Source of the DNA: a virus
Taxonomy: Duplodnaviria > Heunggongvirae > Uroviricota > Caudoviricetes
Length of the DNA stretch: 31,774 nucleotides
Virus record (IMG/VR): IMGVR_UViG_2579779052_000011
Reading direction: 5' to 3' (one strand)
Shown: piece by piece, positions 3,238 to 10,549 of the stretch
Layout: each line of letters opens with the position of its first letter
Position numbering within the stretch: the stretch's first letter is position 1
Program-made: the position numbers and the translations under genes
The notes under the pieces: model-generated
Told to the model about the DNA's origin: nothing
The model's input: only the letters and a program-made list of their open reading frames with translations
Databases searched by the model: none

Positions 3238-3509
3238 GTATTCGTGTTGAAATTGGCGAACGTTATGTCGTTACCAGTGACAGCTTTCAGTTTATTCTCC
3301 ACGAGAAAAAGAGAGCGGAAAGCGGTAAAAACGCCGGTCAGGAATGGCTGGCGGTGGTTGGTTATTACCCGAAATTAGGCCAGCTCGTTTCCGGCCTGAT
3401 GCATCACGATATTCTGACCGGAAGCGCAAAATCTTTTGCTGATTTAAACGCGCAGGTTGAGCAACTCAGCAAGCGTTGTTCAGAGGCTTTTGGCTCATAT
3501 GGCCGTTAA
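3234..3509 (+). CDS. Hypothetical early protein (P2 orf83 position)
   Basis: 91-aa ORF; overlaps the start of A. Confidence 0.6.
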   Translation: MSIRVEIGERYVVTSDSFQFILHEKKRAESGKNAGQEWLAVVGYYPKLGQLVSGLMHHDILTGSAKSFADLNAQVEQLSKRCSEAFGSYGR

Positions 3510-5775
3510 AGCCTCCGGGCGTTTTGTCCCTCCGTCAGCATTTACCGCAGGCACCGGTAAGGCGTTTACCGGTGCTTATGCATGGAACGCGCCACGCGAG
3601 GCTGTCGGGCGCGAAAGACCTCTTACACGTGACGAGATGCGTCAGGTGCAAGGTGTTTTATCCACGATTAACCGCCTGCCTTACTTTTTGCGCTCGCTGT
3701 TTACTTCACGCTATGACTACATCCGGCGCAATAAAAGCCCGGTGCACGGGTTTTATTTCCTCACATCTACTTTTCAGCGTCGTTTATGGCCGCGCATTGA
3801 GCGTGTGAATCAGCGCCATGAAATGAACACCGACGCGTCGTTGCTGTTTCTGGCAGAGCGTGACCACTATGCGCGCCTGCCGGGAATGAATGACAAGGAG
3901 CTGAAAAAGTTTGCCGCCCGTATCTCATCGCAGCTTTTCATGATGTATGAGGAACTCTGCGATGCATGGGTTGATGCGCATGGTGAAAAAGAATCGCTGT
4001 TTACGGATGAGGCGCAGGCTCACCTGTATGGTCATGTTGCTGGCGCTGCACGTGCTTTCAATATTTCCCCGCTCTACTGGAAAAAATACCGTAAAGGACA
4101 GATGACCACGAGGCAGGCATATTCTGCCATTGCCCGCCTGTTTAACGATGAGTGGTGGACTCATCAGCTTAAAGGCCAGCGTATGCGCTGGCATGAGGCG
4201 TTACTGATAGCTGTCGGGGAGGTCAATAAAGACCGTTCTCCTTATGCCAGTAAACACGCCATTCGTGATGTGCGTGCGCGCCGCCAGGCAAATCTGGAAT
4301 TTCTTAAATCGTGTGACCTTGAAAACAGGGAAACCGGCGAGCGCATCGACCTTATCAGTAAGGTGATGGGCAGTATTTCTAATCCTGAAATTCGCCGGAT
4401 GGAGCTGATGAACACCATTGCCGGTATTGAGCGTTACGCCGCCGCAGAGGGTGATGTGGGGATGTTTATCACGCTGACCGCGCCGTCAAAGTATCACCCG
4501 ACACGTCAGGTCGGAAAAGGCGAAAGTAAAACCGTTCAGCTTAATCACGGCTGGAACGATGAGGCATTTAATCCAAAGGATGCGCAGCGTTATCTCTGCC
4601 GTATCTGGAGCCTGATGCGCACGGCATTCAAGGATAATGATTTACAGGTCTACGGTTTGCGAGTCGTCGAGCCACACCACGACGGAACGCCGCACTGGCA
4701 TATGATGCTTTTTTGTCATCCACGCCAGCGTAACCAGATTATCGAAATCATGCGTCGCTATGCGCTCAAAGAGGATGGCGACGAAAGAGGAGCCGCGCGA
4801 AACCGTTTTCAGGCAAAACACCTTAACCGGGGCGGTGCTGCGGGATATATCGCGAAATACATTTCAAAAAACATCGACGGCTATGCACTGGATGGTCAGC
4901 TCGATAACGACACCGGCAGGCCGCTGAAAGACACTGCAGCGGCTGTTACCGCATGGGCGTCAACGTGGCGCATTCCGCAATTTAAAACGGTTGGCCTGCC
5001 GACAATGGGGGCTTACCGTGAACTACGCAAATTGCCTCGCGGCGTCAGCATTGCTGATGAGTTTGACGAGCGCGTCGAGGCTGCACGCGCCGCCGCAGAC
5101 AGTGGTGATTTTGCGCTGTATATCAGCGCGCAGGGCGGGGCAAATGTCCCGCGCGATTGTCAGACTGTCAGGGTCGCCCGTAGTCTGTCGGATGACGTTA
5201 ACGAGTACGAGGAAGAAGTCGAGAGAGTGGTCGGCATTTACGCGCCGCATCTCGGCGCGCGTCATATTCATATCACCAGAACGACGGACTGGCGCATTGT
5301 GCCGAAAGTTCCGGTCGTTGAGCCTTTGACTTTAAAAAGCGGCATCGCCGCGCCTCGGAGTCCTGTCAATAACTGTGGAAAGCTCACCGGTGGTGATACT
5401 TCGTTACCGGCTCCCACACCTTCTGAGCACGCCGCAGCAGTGCTTAATCTGGTTGATGACGATGTTATCGAATGGAATGACCCGGAGGTCGTGAGGGCGC
5501 TCAGGGGCGCATTAAAACACGACCGGAGAACGCCAAACCGTCAGCAAAGAAACGGAAGCCCGTTAAAACCGCATGAAATTGCACCATCGGCCAGACTGAC
5601 CCGGTCGGAACGATTGCAAATTACCCGTATCCGCGTTGATCTCGCTCAGAACGGTATCAGGCCGCAACGATGGGAGCTTGAGGCGCTGGCGCGTGGCGCG
5701 ACCGTAAATTATGACGGGAAACCTTTCACTTATCAGGTCGCTGATGATTGGCCGGGGTTTTTGTTACCCATTTGA
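3499..5775 (+). CDS. A: Rolling-circle replication initiator/endonuclease, P2 gpA-like
   Basis: Large ORF; true start taken as the ATG at 3499 (MAVKASGRF...), which I recognise as the P2 A N-terminus; the listed ORF start at 3457 overlaps the upstream gene. Confidence 0.9.
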   Translation: MAVKASGRFVPPSAFTAGTGKAFTGAYAWNAPREAVGRERPLTRDEMRQVQGVLSTINRLPYFLRSLFTSRYDYIRRNKSPVHGFYFLTSTFQRRLWPRIERVNQRHEMNTDASLLFLAERDHYARLPGMNDKELKKFAARISSQLFMMYEELCDAWVDAHGEKESLFTDEAQAHLYGHVAGAARAFNISPLYWKKYRKGQMTTRQAYSAIARLFNDEWWTHQLKGQRMRWHEALLIAVGEVNKDRSPYASKHAIRDVRARRQANLEFLKSCDLENRETGERIDLISKVMGSISNPEIRRMELMNTIAGIERYAAAEGDVGMFITLTAPSKYHPTRQVGKGESKTVQLNHGWNDEAFNPKDAQRYLCRIWSLMRTAFKDNDLQVYGLRVVEPHHDGTPHWHMMLFCHPRQRNQIIEIMRRYALKEDGDERGAARNRFQAKHLNRGGAAGYIAKYISKNIDGYALDGQLDNDTGRPLKDTAAAVTAWASTWRIPQFKTVGLPTMGAYRELRKLPRGVSIADEFDERVEAARAAADSGDFALYISAQGGANVPRDCQTVRVARSLSDDVNEYEEEVERVVGIYAPHLGARHIHITRTTDWRIVPKVPVVEPLTLKSGIAAPRSPVNNCGKLTGGDTSLPAPTPSEHAAAVLNLVDDDVIEWNDPEVVRALRGALKHDRRTPNRQQRNGSPLKPHEIAPSARLTRSERLQITRIRVDLAQNGIRPQRWELEALARGATVNYDGKPFTYQVADDWPGFLLPI

Positions 5776-5960
5776 GTAAAAATACAGCGTGATTTTATAT
5801 GTCTTTGAATGGATTATGCGAAGCACCTCTAAGGTAGATGAGGAGCAATAGCGTGTTGAATCAGAAGGCTAAATTGTATTGAATCGTTAGCATGTAATTG
5901 AAGGCAGCTATTTGATTCGAGTCATAAAAGAGCATCTATTTCGGTTAATAAAACCATTGC

Positions 5961-6005
5961 GAGTGACTTTATGTCGAAGCATAATTCATCTCGAGCGAAG
6001 TCTTG
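5961..6005. repeat. Direct repeat copy 1 (GAGTGACT...GAGCGAAGTCTTGC)
   Basis: Shares the GAGTGACT start and the 14-bp GAGCGAAGTCTTGC end with 6246-6270, with about 20 extra bp in between. Confidence 0.6.
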
Positions 6006-6037
6006 CTAGTCTTTCATCGGATTGATGACGGGCGCAA

Positions 6038-6069
6038 AAAAACCACCCTGGCAGGTGGTTTTTTTGTTT
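6038..6069. terminator. Bidirectional rho-independent terminator after the early operon
   Basis: AAAAAAA-CCACCCTGGCAGGTGG-TTTTTTT: GC-rich hairpin flanked by an A-tract and a T-tract. Confidence 0.8.
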
Positions 6070-6077
6070 GAAGCATA

Positions 6078-6191
6078 CTAAAGAAAAATACTTACATGGA
6101 TATTACTGACGTTTACTGACAAACCACTCGGACTACCATATGGATAGCCAAAGAGGGCCAGAACGAGAATGCAGTAATAGCACTTCTTCAT
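6078..6191 (-). CDS. Small hydrophobic peptide (37 aa), function unknown
   Basis: ATG with a consensus GGAGG Shine-Dalgarno 5 nt upstream; hand-translated as MKKCYYCILVLALFGYPYGSPSGLSVNVSNIHVSIFL; ends just before the bidirectional terminator. Below the ORF-track size cutoff. Confidence 0.3.
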   Translation of the reverse strand: MKKCYYCILVLALFGYPYGSPSGLSVNVSNIHVSIFL

Positions 6192-6245
6192 ATCGCCTCC
6201 TGTAAGCAGAGGGCAATTTCCGCCGATATATGCGCTTCTAAGGCG

Positions 6246-6270
6246 GAGTGACTATTGAGCGAAGTCTTGC
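6246..6270. repeat. Direct repeat copy 2 (GAGTGACTATTGAGCGAAGTCTTGC)
   Basis: Shares the terminal 14-bp GAGCGAAGTCTTGC and the GAGTGACT start with 5961-6005. Confidence 0.6.
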
Positions 6271-6848
6271 CCTGAAATAATGCTCTGTTTAAACGCAAAG
6301 TGATCTGGCATATCACCGAACAGAGGACCTGAACAACACAACATATAGTATGTCGTTGTTTCTGGTTGCATTTTATGTTGTGTAATACTGGTTTTGCATC
6401 AAGGATGTTTGAGCTTTTTTTGATATAGCTCAAAGTAAAAAGCAGAGACTACGGATGATAAGGTCTTGAAAGCAATGTAAATTTTTTAAAGTTGTGAGTG
6501 GCTAGAAATGCACAGTTTCAATATGGCGGATTTAAACAAGTAATTAAAAATAGCGACATAAATTCCAATAAAATCATTAAGTTGCGTTTTCTGTGGAAAC
6601 TTCGGTGACTCTGAAATTTTCTTTTAGTGTCGCTGAGGTTTAACAACGCGCTGCGCAAGTAGTTAGTGTTTTTTTAACTCAATATTCTGATTTATAAGGT
6701 TTTTTATAAATCGTGGGCTGGTTGCGCGTATTCATCTCGTGTTATCAGCAAAGATAAGCTCTATATGCAGAACGGAATGCATATATGATGTCGAAAATGT
6801 TATGGGAAAACGTGGATTAGTGTTATAGTAATGGCTGAAAAACAGCCT

Positions 6849-6877
6849 TGACATAAAATAACAACTGTGATATGGCT
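6849..6877 (+). promoter_or_regulatory. Putative sigma70 promoter for the cargo peptidase gene
   Basis: TTGACA at 6849-6854, 17-bp spacer, TATGGC -10-like hexamer; TAGGAGG RBS at 6901-6907. Confidence 0.4.
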
Positions 6878-6912
6878 GTGCATACTTAACTTTTTTAACG
6901 TAGGAGGCAACC

Positions 6913-7398
6913 ATGAGCTATGCAGCTAAAAAACTGCTTGACCGCTATTGGGATCGCCGACTACCTGTCGATCCGTTTAAGCTTGCTAAAGCGTGGGGTG
7001 CTCGTGTTGAAGCACTTGAGGAATCGGCTTATAACAACGATGGGTTAAGCGGTCTGGCTGTCATCAAAAAGGGTGTCCATAGGATTTATTTTGATTCTAG
7101 TGAACATTCTAATCGTCAACGTTTTACTGTTGCACACGAGTTAGGTCATCATGTGCTGGGGCATACCCAGGACGGAGAGTACCATCGGGATAATGTCGGG
7201 AATTATTCAACAGGTGCTCGTGATTACCGTGAGGTTGAAGCAAACAAGTTTGCTGCTGAGTTGTTAATGCCTGAGTCTGCTATACGTCAATTGGTATCCA
7301 GAGAAGGTATTGATAGCACTTTGAGATTAGCAAGCATCTTTAATGTATCAGAAGCCGCTATGCATTGGCGCTTAAAGAGCTTAGGAATGGCTTATTAA
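6913..7398 (+). CDS. ImmA/IrrE-family (DUF955) zinc metallopeptidase
   Basis: 161-aa ORF with HEXXH (HELGHH) and the downstream family motif EANKFAAELLMPE; strong RBS; AT-rich. Confidence 0.8.
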   Translation: MSYAAKKLLDRYWDRRLPVDPFKLAKAWGARVEALEESAYNNDGLSGLAVIKKGVHRIYFDSSEHSNRQRFTVAHELGHHVLGHTQDGEYHRDNVGNYSTGARDYREVEANKFAAELLMPESAIRQLVSREGIDSTLRLASIFNVSEAAMHWRLKSLGMAY

Positions 7399-7426
7399 TT
7401 AGCCTTTAACTTTTAACCTGTTTAAA

Positions 7427-7465
7427 ATCACCTTTACGTTTGTACATGTAAGGGTGATTTTTTTA
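7427..7465 (+). terminator. Rho-independent terminator or attenuator after the peptidase gene
   Basis: 10-bp stem (AUCACCUUUA / UAAGGGUGAU, one G-U pair) followed by a run of 7 T; ends at the start codon of the next ORF. Confidence 0.6.
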
Positions 7466-8064
7466 TGGCTGATATTGATTTATCTGGACAGTCCCCAGAG
7501 CAAGGAACCACTCCTAAGGGCGATTTAGATCCTGATATCCTTATAAGGCGAGATAGACGGGATGGTATAGAGCGTAGAAGCATGCGATTAGTGCTCTCTG
7601 CCGTTGTGCTTTGTTTTGCTTGTACATTTCTATGGCAGGGGCTTAACTTTGCTTTGGCTGTTGGAAATGGCTTGCTGGAAGCGAAAAGCAGTATTGCCGC
7701 AGCGATAACACAAAAAGTAGATACACAAACTTGTGTTTCAGCAGAAAAATGTTCTGCTTTATCTTCGGATCCGAAGATGGCTGATGAGAGGATAACACCA
7801 TCTTCAGACACTAATAAAGTTAGAAAATCTATTTCTGGTTTATCCACCGATTGGTTATCGGCCAGTTCTCTAATAGCTATTGTTGCATTCATCCTTGGTG
7901 TGGGTTTAACTTTGCTTTTGACTCTTCTTAAATCAGCATTTCAACACCCGACAGATAAAGACTTTAGAACAAAGTCGACATCTAATACTATTGAGTTGGC
8001 CACGCCAATCAGTGAATTAATAATTGGTGTTCTGAATATAATTAAAGACAAACTATCTAAGTAA
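7465..8064 (+). CDS. Hypothetical membrane protein with two predicted TM helices
   Basis: 199-aa ORF; hydrophobic segments LVLSAVVLCFACTFLW and LIAIVAFILGVGLTLLLTLL; no recognisable RBS; followed by a terminator. Confidence 0.45.
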   Translation: MADIDLSGQSPEQGTTPKGDLDPDILIRRDRRDGIERRSMRLVLSAVVLCFACTFLWQGLNFALAVGNGLLEAKSSIAAAITQKVDTQTCVSAEKCSALSSDPKMADERITPSSDTNKVRKSISGLSTDWLSASSLIAIVAFILGVGLTLLLTLLKSAFQHPTDKDFRTKSTSNTIELATPISELIIGVLNIIKDKLSK

Positions 8065-8106
8065 AGCATTAGTTGTGATTTTTTATTGGTTTTAGTGATA
8101 ATACAT

Positions 8107-8139
8107 CTCCAGTACTTATTGTTACTGGAGAGTATTTTT
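8107..8139 (+). terminator. Rho-independent terminator between convergent cargo genes
   Basis: Perfect 8-bp stem CTCCAGTA...TACTGGAG followed by AGTATTTTTA. Confidence 0.6.
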
Positions 8140-8146
8140 AGTCGTT

Positions 8147-9088
8147 TTATATTTTTAATGTTAGTGAATGATATTCACGAGAGTTCACGTTCGATGTGAT
8201 GTAATCGGGGGCGTTAACACCAAGAATCGCAACGAGTAATCGGCAAATTAAAGCCTGCATTTGTTGTAATATGTCATCTCCATATTGATAATTGTTAATA
8301 GTGGTAAAGCCAAGTGGTTGACCATGAAACATAGCTTCATGAAAGTTTTCATTGCGGATGTTTGTAATGTTTTTTTTGCCTGTAACCCATGATGGTCGTG
8401 GTATTCCATAAGTTTTGCAGATCCACTTCAAGCGCCTGGAGTGATTTAGAGTCTTTTCTGTACACTTGTTCTTTTCTGCCCATGTTAAAGCAAAGCAACT
8501 ATCCAGTGCCATATAAAGATACTGGAATTTTTCGAAGCTAAGGTATTGTGGGTTTTGGGATAAAAATAGTGCATGCACTATTGCTGCTATATTTATTGGT
8601 GCGTGTTTGGTTTTTGTCTCGCTAGACATGTATTTGAGTGCTAATTCTATAACCTCTTTTTCAGAGCACTTGACCAGAATAAAGTCAGTTAATTTGCTAG
8701 GTTTTATTGGGGTTGCGTCTAAAAAACCGGCATCAGTAGTTGTTAATCTTATCCCTTTGAAAAAAGACAGACACCACACAGCAAAATTGAGAGTTTCTAG
8801 TGAAGATGTATTTTTTAATTTTAGTGAGTGTGTTTTGGGTAAGCCAAATACTCGTTGGCTAAAAGGCATTGTGGATATGCCTCCATTGAGGTTATATACT
8901 TCTTGGTTTCCTGGGTATATCCAACCGTTAATAACATTTCTGTGATTGTTTATAAGATTTGTTTTTTCCGCTAGACCGGGTAAAGTAAGTAAAGAAAAAT
9001 CATCAGTTTCAACGTTAACTTCTACTGGATAGTATCCAAACTCAGCTTCAATATCATTGGATTGCTGTTCGTCAACTTTACCTTGCAT
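8147..9088 (-). CDS. Hypothetical 313-aa protein in the old/tin hotspot; possible HEPN-like Rx4H motif; candidate defence effector
   Basis: AT-rich ORF with GGAG RBS 8 nt upstream; occupies the cos-proximal slot where P2 has old; C-terminal IRNENFHEAMFHG motif. Confidence 0.6.
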   Translation of the reverse strand: MQGKVDEQQSNDIEAEFGYYPVEVNVETDDFSLLTLPGLAEKTNLINNHRNVINGWIYPGNQEVYNLNGGISTMPFSQRVFGLPKTHSLKLKNTSSLETLNFAVWCLSFFKGIRLTTTDAGFLDATPIKPSKLTDFILVKCSEKEVIELALKYMSSETKTKHAPINIAAIVHALFLSQNPQYLSFEKFQYLYMALDSCFALTWAEKNKCTEKTLNHSRRLKWICKTYGIPRPSWVTGKKNITNIRNENFHEAMFHGQPLGFTTINNYQYGDDILQQMQALICRLLVAILGVNAPDYITSNVNSREYHSLTLKI

Positions 9089-9200
9089 ACATTGCTCCGG
9101 TCAAAAATAGGCTCGATAATTCTCGTAAGCCTATCATGTTCGCAAAGTATCCATACCTGTGGATTTTGTAAATTTAAGTTGATTTGTCATTAAATAAGCC

Positions 9201-9212
9201 GTTGCATGCAAC
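9201..9212. repeat. Perfect 12-bp palindrome GTTGCATGCAAC upstream of the 313-aa gene
   Basis: Direct reading; lies in the promoter region of the minus-strand cargo gene. Confidence 0.5.
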
Positions 9213-9326
9213 AAGTGAATGTTTTTGCATGCGTCGGGGATGTCCGTTCAGGCTGCGTGCGGTCAGGACTGGTGCGGATCCATAGTATCTATGCAACTGC
9301 ATTAAAACTGCCCCATGAAGCGGGCG

Positions 9327-9345
9327 GGCGAGGCGGGGAAAGCAC
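9327..9345. other. cos: cos site (19-nt cohesive end GGCGAGGCGGGGAAAGCAC)
   Basis: Exact match to the P2 cohesive-end sequence as I recall it; located immediately upstream of Q as in P2. Confidence 0.8.
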
Positions 9346-9514: not shown

Positions 9515-10549
9515 TCAGCCGTTGTCAGTGTCCAGTGAGTAGTTTTTAAAGCGGATGACCTCCTGGCCGAGCCAGCCGTTTATTTCCCGAATCCTGTCCT
9601 GTAACGGGATAAGTTCATTGCGGACAAAGACCTTTGCCACTTTCTCAATATCACCCAGCGACCCGACGTTCTCCGGCTTGCCGCCCATCAACTGAAAGGG
9701 GATGCGGTGCGCGTCCAGCAGGTCAGCGGCGCTGGCTTTTTTGATATTAAAAAAATCGTCCTTCGTTGCCACTTCACTGAGCGGGATAATTTTAATACCG
9801 TCGGCTTTCCCCTGCGGGGCATAGAGAAACAGATTTTTAAAGTTGTTGCGGCCTTTCGACTTGACCATGTTTTCGCGAAGCATTTCGATATCGTTGCGAT
9901 CCTGCACGGCATCAGTGACGTACATGATGTATCCGGCATGTGCGCCATTTTCGTAATACTTGCGGCGGAACAGCGTGGCCGACTCATTCAGCCAGGCAGA
10001 GTTAAGGGCGCTGAGATATTCCGGCAGGCCGTACAGCTCCTGATTAATATCCGGCTCCAGCAGGTGAAACACGGAGCCGGGCGCGAAGGCTGTCGGCTCG
10101 TTGAAGGACGGCGCCCACCAGTAAACATCCTCTTCCACACCACGGCGGGGATATTTTGCCGGTGAGGTTTCCAGTCTGATGACCTTACCGGTGGTGCTGT
10201 AACGCTTTTCCAGAAACGCATTACCGAACACCAGAAAATCCAGCACAAAGCGGCTGAAATCCTGCTGGGAAAGCCACGGATGCGGGATAAATGTTGAGGC
10301 CAGAATATTACGTTTGACGTAAATCGGTGAGCTGTGATGCACGGCAGCACGCAGGCTTTTTGCCAGACCGGTAAAGCTGACCGGTGGTTCATACCATCTG
10401 CCGTTACTGATGCACTCGACGTAATCCAGAATGTCACGGCGGTCGAGTACCGGTACCGGCTCGCCAAAGGTGAATGCCTCCATTTTCGGGGTGCTGGCGG
10501 TCATTTTTTTTGCCGCAGGTTGCGGTGTTTTCCCTTTTTTCTTGCTCAT
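9515..10549 (-). CDS. Q: Portal protein, P2 gpQ-like
   Basis: 344-aa ORF, same length as P2 Q; N-terminal lysine-rich region; adjacent to cos. Confidence 0.9.
   Translation of the reverse strand: MSKKKGKTPQPAAKKMTASTPKMEAFTFGEPVPVLDRRDILDYVECISNGRWYEPPVSFTGLAKSLRAAVHHSSPIYVKRNILASTFIPHPWLSQQDFSRFVLDFLVFGNAFLEKRYSTTGKVIRLETSPAKYPRRGVEEDVYWWAPSFNEPTAFAPGSVFHLLEPDINQELYGLPEYLSALNSAWLNESATLFRRKYYENGAHAGYIMYVTDAVQDRNDIEMLRENMVKSKGRNNFKNLFLYAPQGKADGIKIIPLSEVATKDDFFNIKKASAADLLDAHRIPFQLMGGKPENVGSLGDIEKVAKVFVRNELIPLQDRIREINGWLGQEVIRFKNYSLDTDNG

Follow-up and report, generated by a model that had tools for sequence, protein, structure and literature searches.

In phage P2, the interval between gene A and cos is occupied by orf91, tin and old; Old combines an ABC-ATPase with a TOPRIM nuclease. 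We analysed the same interval in a P2-like (Peduovirus) genome, IMG/VR record IMGVR_UViG_2579779052_000011 (31,774 nucleotides (nt), hereafter the window). Here a cargo block encodes a 37-amino-acid peptide (open reading frame ORF37) beside a putative small RNA (sRNA), an ImmA/IrrE metallopeptidase (ImmA) followed by a protein with two transmembrane segments (2-TM protein, ORF199), and a convergent 313-amino-acid protein (ORF313).

Several described systems resemble parts of this block. CapP is an ImmA-like protease that is stimulated by DNA damage or single-stranded DNA and regulates CBASS and other immune operons. Type I toxin-antitoxin loci with short complementarity between an sRNA and the toxin 5' untranslated region (UTR) include tisB/istR-1, zorO/orzO, shoB/ohsC and dinQ/agrB. 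RosmerTA of Gordonia phage Kita joins the protease RmrA to a membrane-depolarising toxin and is narrow in spectrum, protecting against only 2 BASEL phages (PMC10440598). ApeA and DARNA (PD-T7-3) are activated by nucleic-acid-derived cues and cut transfer RNA (bioRxiv 10.64898/2026.01.26.701840; 10.64898/2026.02.22.705581). In the hotspot itself, Rousset et al. (2022) surveyed 18,150 P2 A-Q loci. ORF313 figures in their Table S5B as single-gene system #11 (218 occurrences, no Pfam), and the combination of Peptidase_M78 with a 2-TM protein as system #21 (148 occurrences) (PMC9122126).

Our best explanation, to which we give a probability of about 0.6, is that three accessory modules, each mobile in its own right, lie side by side as a mosaic in the P2 A-Q (tin/old) hotspot and do not make up a three-gene system. 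The modules are the ORF37/sRNA cassette, the ImmA and 2-TM pair, and ORF313. They are independent, because each recurs without the others and because Rousset et al. list the ImmA pair and ORF313 separately. Adjacent ImmA and 2-TM genes with no ORF313 homologue nearby were found in Vibrio harveyi, Acinetobacter baumannii and Serratia, on an Enterobacter plasmid and at the end of a Pectobacterium prophage. In P2-like phages the cassette stood at the A-proximal edge of the hotspot, before different cargo. A distant BLAST search also recovered it full-length, unannotated and with about 75% identity, on 388 plasmids, most of them of the large Klebsiella IncF type, and a metagenome pattern scan returned further copies. 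An IMG/VR scan yielded 41 ORF313 loci, nearly all P2-like (about 39 contigs), in which ORF313 was always the Q/cos-proximal gene. On the A side these viral loci carried the cassette with ImmA and 2-TM genes (8 loci) or the unrelated genes ORF73 and ORF226 (9 loci); in at least 4 loci the A side was empty, leaving only some 760 base pairs (bp). At 19 ORF313 loci in genomes of alpha-, beta-, gamma- and deltaproteobacteria and Planctomycetota, each neighbour family turned up three times at most.

The original prediction, made from the window sequence, had presented the block as one candidate defence module. This was not borne out, since the ImmA and 2-TM pair, the 313-amino-acid gene and the small cassette each occur elsewhere without the others. 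A co-operating defence system made up of all three protein genes, in which ImmA might for instance regulate the 2-TM protein as well as ORF313, is very improbable. The genes are adjacent and have their low guanine-plus-cytosine (GC) content in common, the exact trio is present in 46 E. coli genomes and 8 viral contigs, and Table S5A of Rousset et al. gives the arrangement "Peptidase_M78 + hypothetical + hypothetical". Yet ORF313 is convergent to ORF199, with a bidirectional terminator-like hairpin in between (8106-8131; 9-bp stem, both strands), each part is found without the other in many lineages, and the curation of Rousset et al. makes them two separate systems. The trio copies are at least 98% identical, indicating one recent lineage and not conserved linkage. 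The modules are catalogued but uncharacterised, and the idea of a single unmatched defence module is to be replaced. The accompanying claim that the proteins match nothing named stood in part: ORF199 and ORF313 have no PADLOC, Pfam or NCBIfam match and no match to Tin or Old, but both had already been catalogued by Rousset et al. Of the structural and profile checks that had been proposed, AlphaFold2, Foldseek against the PDB, and PADLOC were run; PADLOC left ORF199 and ORF313 with no named-system match, and the peptidase matched the capP and RmrA models over the peptidase core only.

The block lies between gene A, which spans 3457-5775 and matches Pfam Phage_GPA (E=2.8e-124), and portal gene Q, at 9515-10549 on the minus strand. 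Blastn alignment to the P2 reference NC_001895, a comparison that had likewise been proposed, showed 96.9% identity up to window position 5759 and then resumed only at 9298-9345, placing the replacement boundaries at 5759/9298 and the block at 5760-9297. The GC content was 0.33-0.44 over 5800-9200 versus 0.51-0.59 in gene A and in Q/P. An AT-rich block between A and cos had been predicted correctly, with borders (5776-9326) right to about 30 bp. The predicted replacement of orf91, tin and old in the P2 A-Q hotspot (PMC9122126) was confirmed as well: tblastn found no counterpart of P2 Orf91, Tin or Old in the window (best E=0.3), and PADLOC gave no Old match among the block proteins. The ImmA/IrrE gene, the 2-TM gene (two hydrophobic segments) and the convergent 313-amino-acid gene were all present as described, as were terminator-like hairpins, at 6035-6066 and 8106-8131, and a small peptide cassette, with its 37-amino-acid ORF at 6078-6191 on the minus strand behind an AGGAGG Shine-Dalgarno (SD) sequence. 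The 19-nt cohesive-end sequence of cos, GGCGAGGCGGGGAAAGCAC, was matched exactly at 9327-9345 (plus strand) and aligned to P2 cosR.

Among 5,426 complete E. coli genomes, 46 contained a copy of the block with 99.4-99.8% identity, as did Salmonella phage MET_P1_103_31, which excludes an assembly artefact. P2-like prophages were present in about 40% of complete E. coli genomes. In E. coli 1916D18 (locus 8050-8557) the otherwise identical prophage is a remnant, with truncated pseudogenes and baseplate gene V directly after the portal gene, and the cargo block persists in this defective prophage. Like P2 old and tin, the block consists of accessory lysogen genes carried by a phage in the slot between A and cos, and ORF313 has the cos-proximal position and leftward orientation of old. 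Unlike them, it shows no sequence similarity to the P2 genes, its cos-proximal protein has a HEPN fold, and it contains no Tin-like protein.

ORF313 (8147-9088, minus strand) was already so named in GenBank AM157369 (P2-EC67). The protein consists of an N-terminal alpha/beta domain (residues ~1-140) and a C-terminal HEPN-fold domain (~160-300). In an alignment of 40 homologues, down to 44% identity, R245, N246, H250 and E251 were invariant (R245-N-E-N-F-H250-E251), and the N-domain held many invariant aromatic and charged residues. The R245-N246-x3-H250 segment (codons at 8339-8356, minus strand) corresponds to the Rx4H motif of HEPN proteins and falls within the Rx4-6H catalytic motif of the superfamily. 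An AlphaFold2 model built with the 40 homologues (predicted local distance difference test (pLDDT) 83.6, predicted template modelling score 0.84) showed a beta-rich N-domain and a helical C-domain; model confidence was low exactly at the motif (pLDDT <50 for residues 246-258). The C-terminal domain formed the four-helix up-down bundle typical of HEPN domains, with a fold matching Csm6, AbiA, HepT and AbiV. Taken together, these features make a HEPN fold highly probable.

At E<=1e-3 among 1.84 billion proteins, the ORF313 family comprised 675 representatives at 50% identity. Nearly all members were about 300 amino acids long and matched end to end, from Proteobacteria to Planctomycetota. Foldseek against the PDB gave nothing below E=1. 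The combination of a non-catalytic domain and an Rx4H HEPN domain in one polypeptide is shared with ApeA and DARNA, AbiV, the AbiA HEPN domain, HepT and Csm6. However, ApeA has about 580 amino acids in three helical domains, unlike the 313 residues and alpha/beta N-domain of ORF313, and DARNA has 456 with HEPN at the N-terminus, whereas that of ORF313 is C-terminal. Membership in ApeA (Gao et al. 2020) or DARNA was rejected by profile and architecture, with no PADLOC match at E<=1 and no Pfam match at E<=10 among the 40 family members; the only pointer to ApeA was the UniRef name of one homologue, "Apea-like HEPN". A sequence-profile search of the PDB with the family returned only matches to the N-terminus of ribonucleotide reductase R2, at E about 0.02, which were judged spurious. 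In that match the profile over residues ~243-283 (window ~8240-8362, minus strand; ..RNDalHEalFFdePLGF..) weakly resembles the extreme N-terminus of E. coli R2, KNDQLKEPMFFGQPV; the resemblance is probably due to chance.

By analogy with ApeA and DARNA, we infer that ORF313 may be a sensor-plus-HEPN RNase acting by abortive infection. In this scheme a cue of infection would be perceived by the N-terminal alpha/beta domain, freeing the C-terminal HEPN ribonuclease, which would probably become active after dimerisation, as in other HEPN enzymes. The released nuclease would then cut host or phage RNA, providing single-protein abortive infection or defence. In the DefensePredictor supplement, WP_001161722.1, the RefSeq protein annotated for ORF313 in an E. 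coli genome whose block is 99.7% identical, has a mean log-odds of 9.68 and is listed as "Predicted novel defense gene" with no remote homologue (PMC13092281). This protein is absent from the systems tested in the same study. DefensePredictor system DS-40 was considered as a match to the block and rejected as unrelated in sequence. We consider the odds of an anti-phage function for ORF313 slightly better than even, and ORF313 is the best anti-phage candidate of the three modules.

A HEPN-fold protein with a role outside defence, such as a prophage-stabilising toxin, a counter-defence factor, an RNA-processing enzyme or an inactive HEPN scaffold, would also account for part of these data. Many HEPN proteins are not defence effectors (PMC3710099), known defence genes are scarce near ORF313 outside P2, and at some loci, such as that of Aeromonas, housekeeping genes surround it. 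No cognate antitoxin of ORF313 was seen, and no type III toxin-antitoxin-like repeat array was found upstream of it, where there is only a 2-copy 15-nt repeat. We nevertheless regard a non-defence role as decidedly unlikely: the catalytic-type motif does not vary, DefensePredictor scores the protein highly, and the gene holds the position of old in a hotspot whose tested cargo is mostly defensive (PMC9122126, PMC13586616). Homologues elsewhere also have mobile-element surroundings, where integrases, resolvases, and genes of conjugation or of phages occur. One homologue, 45% identical and found on many Pseudomonas aeruginosa contigs, sits in a region resembling an integrative and conjugative element with DUF932 and ParB_N genes, and a gene for an OLD-family ABC-ATPase/TOPRIM protein lies ~3 kb away. 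Two promoter-like sites precede ORF313 in the window (9075-9190, minus strand), identified by consensus only with 9/12 matches each.

The second module begins with an ImmA/IrrE (M78) metallopeptidase of 161 amino acids, encoded at 6913-7398 on the plus strand (Pfam PF06114, E=3.8e-21). Its Peptidase_M78 score was 75.6 bits against a cut-off of 22, and the HExxH (HELGHH), HRD and EANxFAA motifs of the family were invariant in orthologues at 41-88% identity, the last within a longer conserved stretch (EANxFAAELLMP; EANxFAAxLLMP across the orthologues). The best PADLOC match was capP (E=1.1e-30), covering only model positions 8-153 of 242; RmrA models matched at up to E=6e-17, in the peptidase region. 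By model coverage, the protein is a peptidase core with neither a helix-turn-helix (HTH) nor a C-terminal domain. No HTH ORF stood beside the pair in six lineages, and a search upstream of ImmA in distant lineages found neither a conserved small ORF nor an HTH gene. In five other genera, a Peptidase_M78 gene of 161-164 amino acids lay 30-74 nt upstream of distant 2-TM homologues (27-60% identity); these loci were retrieved by exact-protein look-ups. A genome-contig pattern search with the 2-TM alignment gave 52 pattern matches, 0 of which were confirmed by tblastn.

ORF199 (7465-8064, plus strand; 199 amino acids) was defined as a 2-TM protein from alignment, hydropathy and AlphaFold2. It has hydrophobic segments at about residues 38-66 and 126-160 and predicted helices at 23-88, 116-159 and 179-198. 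A charged N-tail (..RRDRRDGIERRSMR) is followed by TM1, a variable loop, the near-invariant TM2 AFILGVGLTLLLTLLK and an amphipathic C-terminal helix. The loop was modelled at low confidence and keeps two cysteines in enterobacterial homologues. We propose an N-in/C-in topology. The protein matched phrog_8096, a family of unknown function.

A terminator-like hairpin with a T-run directly precedes the ORF199 start codon (7424-7464, plus strand; RNAfold -18.4 kcal/mol), and the one SD-like sequence, GGGTGA, lies in the 3' arm of this hairpin. Since this sequence is buried in a hairpin that abuts the start codon, the arrangement implies that ORF199 expression would be attenuated, with its ribosome-binding site occluded, as expected for a harmful product. 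The arrangement recurs in three groups, each with its own stem sequence: E. coli, Serratia/Enterobacter/Pectobacterium, and Vibrio. Public annotations differ on the start of the 2-TM gene, placing it at 7465 (199 amino acids) or at 7582 (160 amino acids). The conserved hairpin/T-run/ATG and the conserved N-terminal extension (MAD-IDLSG...) favour the 199-amino-acid start.

The pair recalls RosmerTA, which in logic comes closest to it among experimentally studied systems, in that an ImmA/IrrE-type peptidase is joined to an unrelated small, possibly membrane-targeted partner on a phage or other mobile element. However, RmrA has about 360-400 amino acids with an N-terminal HTH, and the 161-residue peptidase covers model positions ~146-292 only. 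The true RmrA of Serratia, in contrast, matched the model end to end (E=2.7e-145). The gene order here is peptidase first, and ORF199 matched no RmrT model, although the models represent known RmrT families only and RmrT is diverse. The capP model, despite being the best match of the peptidase, differs in its C-terminal domain (model 154-242); this domain, a CapH-like HTH partner and a downstream immune operon are all absent, and the partner is a 2-TM protein. Because there is no HTH, the pair does not belong to Rosmer, CapP/CapH or ImmA/ImmR, and it is Rosmer-like in working principle only. PD-Lambda-2 was also rejected: only a weak partial match to component B was found (E=1.3e-6, peptidase region), and components A and C were absent. 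In Serratia (locus 4445-9246), an islet between phn and nrdD genes holds the ImmA and 2-TM pair and, 1.8 kb downstream of it, a complete RosmerTA (RmrT E=8.5e-59; RmrA, as above).

We propose that a stand-alone cytoplasmic ImmA/IrrE zinc protease may control ORF199 as a small inner-membrane effector. Expression of the effector would be held down by the terminator and RBS-occluding hairpin, and ImmA would either remove ORF199, acting as an antitoxin, or, once triggered, cut ORF199 in a cytoplasmic tail. We rate the chance that the pair has a toxin-antitoxin or defence role somewhat below even. Small prophage inner-membrane proteins often prevent DNA entry, and ORF199 could be such a lysogenic-conversion or superinfection-exclusion protein with ImmA as its maturation or turnover protease; alternatively, ImmA could be an anti-repressor protease like that of ICEBs1. 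The tight translational occlusion of the 2-TM gene suits a harmful product better than a constitutive exclusion protein. An anti-repressor would fit the classical activity of ImmA-family proteases, which cleave HTH repressors (PMC10440598), but no HTH gene is adjacent in six lineages, and pairing with the 2-TM gene is the conserved feature, including on a plasmid and in chromosomal islands. Both alternatives agree with the lack of reported protection by the cloned variant and the DC1 lysogen described below; we consider them unlikely.

The third module, the ORF37/sRNA cassette (about 5950-6400), lies at the gene A edge of the block. ORF37 (6078-6191, minus strand; MKKCYYCILVLALFGYPYGSPSGLSVNVSNIHVSIFL) is a hydrophobic peptide and a candidate type I toxin. 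A putative sRNA of ~77 nt, antitoxin-like, lies convergent to it at 5992-6068 (plus strand; ends inferred) and comprises a 5' seed, a middle hairpin and a terminator. Its promoter-like site (TTGCGA-17-CATAAT; 5957-5985, plus strand) was found by a promoter scan; the hexamers are kept in the Klebsiella plasmid copies and the spacer diverges. The hairpin at 6035-6066, a 13-bp perfect inverted repeat with A/T-run flanks that is invariant in all variants, would serve as a bidirectional intrinsic terminator common to the sRNA and the ORF37 mRNA. The 14-nt sequence GAGCGAAGTCTTGC at the putative sRNA 5' end (5993-6006, plus strand) recurs as an exact direct repeat at 6257-6270. On the minus-strand mRNA this second copy is complementary to the sRNA 5' end, and we propose it as the pairing site in a conserved structured 5' UTR. 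A promoter-like element for the ORF37 mRNA (ATGCAA-18-TAAAAT; 6370-6399, minus strand) keeps ATGCAAA and TA(A/G)AAT in the E. coli and Klebsiella types; its -35 is weak, its spacer diverges, and the promoter scan missed it. An 81-amino-acid ORF at 6188-6433 (minus strand) was rejected as a gene: it lies in the conserved 5' UTR, and its PADLOC match to Cmr5 reached only E=0.006.

Conservation of the cassette was followed across 17 distinct variants. ORF37 was intact at 37 codons and preceded by GGAGG in all 17, with about 75% nucleotide identity between clades and a hydrophobic N-terminal half, as in the small conserved hydrophobic ORFs of type I loci. The sRNA middle hairpin was kept with lineage-specific sequences; this was judged from per-sequence RNAfold folds, as MAFFT placed the lineage-specific stems out of register. 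The flanks of the two repeat copies co-varied by lineage, giving 14, 17 or 18 matching nt. The metagenome pattern forced a 12-13-nt repeat core to match, and the BLAST-derived copies, which were unforced, conserve the core nonetheless. The segment 5876-6475 was 94-100% identical to phage DC1, with flanks at 60-84%, and this 600-bp core was present in 150 E. coli genomes, 80 of them with an 80-90% variant. The one example of that variant examined, a P2-like prophage of E. coli KO11FL (NC_017660, 4001-7051), carries a cassette with 88.7% identity followed by PD-T4-4 (A, E=2e-112; B, E=1e-15) and not by the ImmA and 2-TM pair.

The cassette resembles type I loci in its very small hydrophobic ORF, strong SD sequence and long structured 5' UTR, in the separate putative sRNA with a 14-18-nt UTR match, and in being borne by plasmids and prophages. 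It differs in that its genes are convergent with a common terminator and not divergent, and it shows no similarity to type I families in Rfam or Pfam. The sRNA matched no Rfam family at threshold and ORF37 no Pfam or NCBIfam model. A type I toxin-antitoxin locus with a short-seed putative sRNA would fit this arrangement, and we rate that interpretation just short of even. In such a locus, the mRNA of the ORF37 membrane peptide would be repressed by the convergent sRNA, whose 5' end would pair with the mRNA 5' UTR.

Alternatively, the cassette could encode a small secreted or membrane peptide, the neighbouring terminator being unrelated and the repeats due to chance, or it could act purely in cis, as a regulatory leader for the cargo downstream. 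ORF37 is signal-sequence-like (MKK followed by a hydrophobic stretch), its ratio of non-synonymous to synonymous change is not low, and in P2-like phages the cassette is always at the A-proximal edge of the hotspot. But hundreds of Klebsiella plasmids carry it away from P2 genes, and both repeats and both promoter-like elements are fixed where overall identity is 75%. There is also co-variation of the repeat flanks, and compensatory changes preserve the sRNA hairpin. We find these non-toxin alternatives rather unlikely. For the two more general proposals, that a repressor-less ImmA/IrrE acts directly on an inner-membrane effector from Vibrio to Acinetobacter, or that the cassette is a new type I family of P2 hotspots and Klebsiella plasmids, it is doubtful that even one is true.

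Earlier experiments bear on the readings of the cassette and the ImmA pair. The construct pFR104, "Peptidase + TM", is a TA280 variant cloned with its native upstream region, the small cassette included (PMC9122126). Against their counterparts in the window, its peptidase shows 88% identity and its TM protein about 55%. Several points weigh against the roles proposed here. The construct appears only in Table S2B among "additional tested systems" and was not validated on the 8-phage panel, and among the four isolated P2-like phages of Rousset et al. only AC1 was reported protective as a lysogen (PMC9122126). Phage DC1 (OU784750), which apparently carries both the cassette and the ImmA pair, was not reported protective as a lysogen. 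Outside P2, ~4/127 ORF313 neighbours matched PADLOC at E<=1e-10. Between ORF37 clades, non-synonymous codon changes exceeded synonymous ones (13-14 vs 9-11), and the ORF199 model is poor (pLDDT 62). A cloned region that gives no resistance, which the original prediction had named as grounds for abandoning a defence role, has thus been observed in part: the variant pFR104 is not among the validated systems, and the 313-amino-acid gene is absent from the clone. A panel of eight phages is also narrow and can miss activity, as the range of the Kita system illustrates.

We found no papers characterising either protein module or the cassette, and a literature search with the peptide and seed sequences was empty. 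The "3 HP" system of Rousset et al., a validated system of three genes, was rejected as a match, as it is described without a clear predicted domain, whereas this block has an M78 peptidase. Novelty is moderate: the ImmA pair and ORF313 are already catalogued as separate P2-hotspot entries, and the cassette is possibly a new family.

Further elements were noted around ORF313. In P2-EC67 (AM157369, 158-1087) and in nine IMG/VR loci, ORF73 and ORF226 form an alternative A-side partner of ORF313; ORF226 had no PADLOC match and represents another uncharacterised hotspot module. Two repeats were seen at window positions 9199-9237 and 9248-9277: an imperfect inverted repeat around TTGCATGC(A), just upstream of the ORF313 promoter-like sites, and a two-copy 15-nt tandem repeat between ORF313 and cos. 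Either of them could serve as an operator or belong to the packaging region that flanks cos.

The P2 A-Q hotspot is a proven anti-phage reservoir, and dividing the block into its real units shows experimenters which pieces to clone. Should ORF313 prove to be an active HEPN nuclease, it would contribute a compact architecture of sensor plus RNase. Under the mechanism proposed for the ImmA pair, ImmA/IrrE signalling would extend from repressors to membrane effectors, and such a protease-gated membrane switch would differ from the usual logic in which the protease cleaves an HTH repressor. The cassette, at 0.45 kb, is a possible stabiliser of plasmids and prophages, a role that would matter for the stability of large Klebsiella plasmids.

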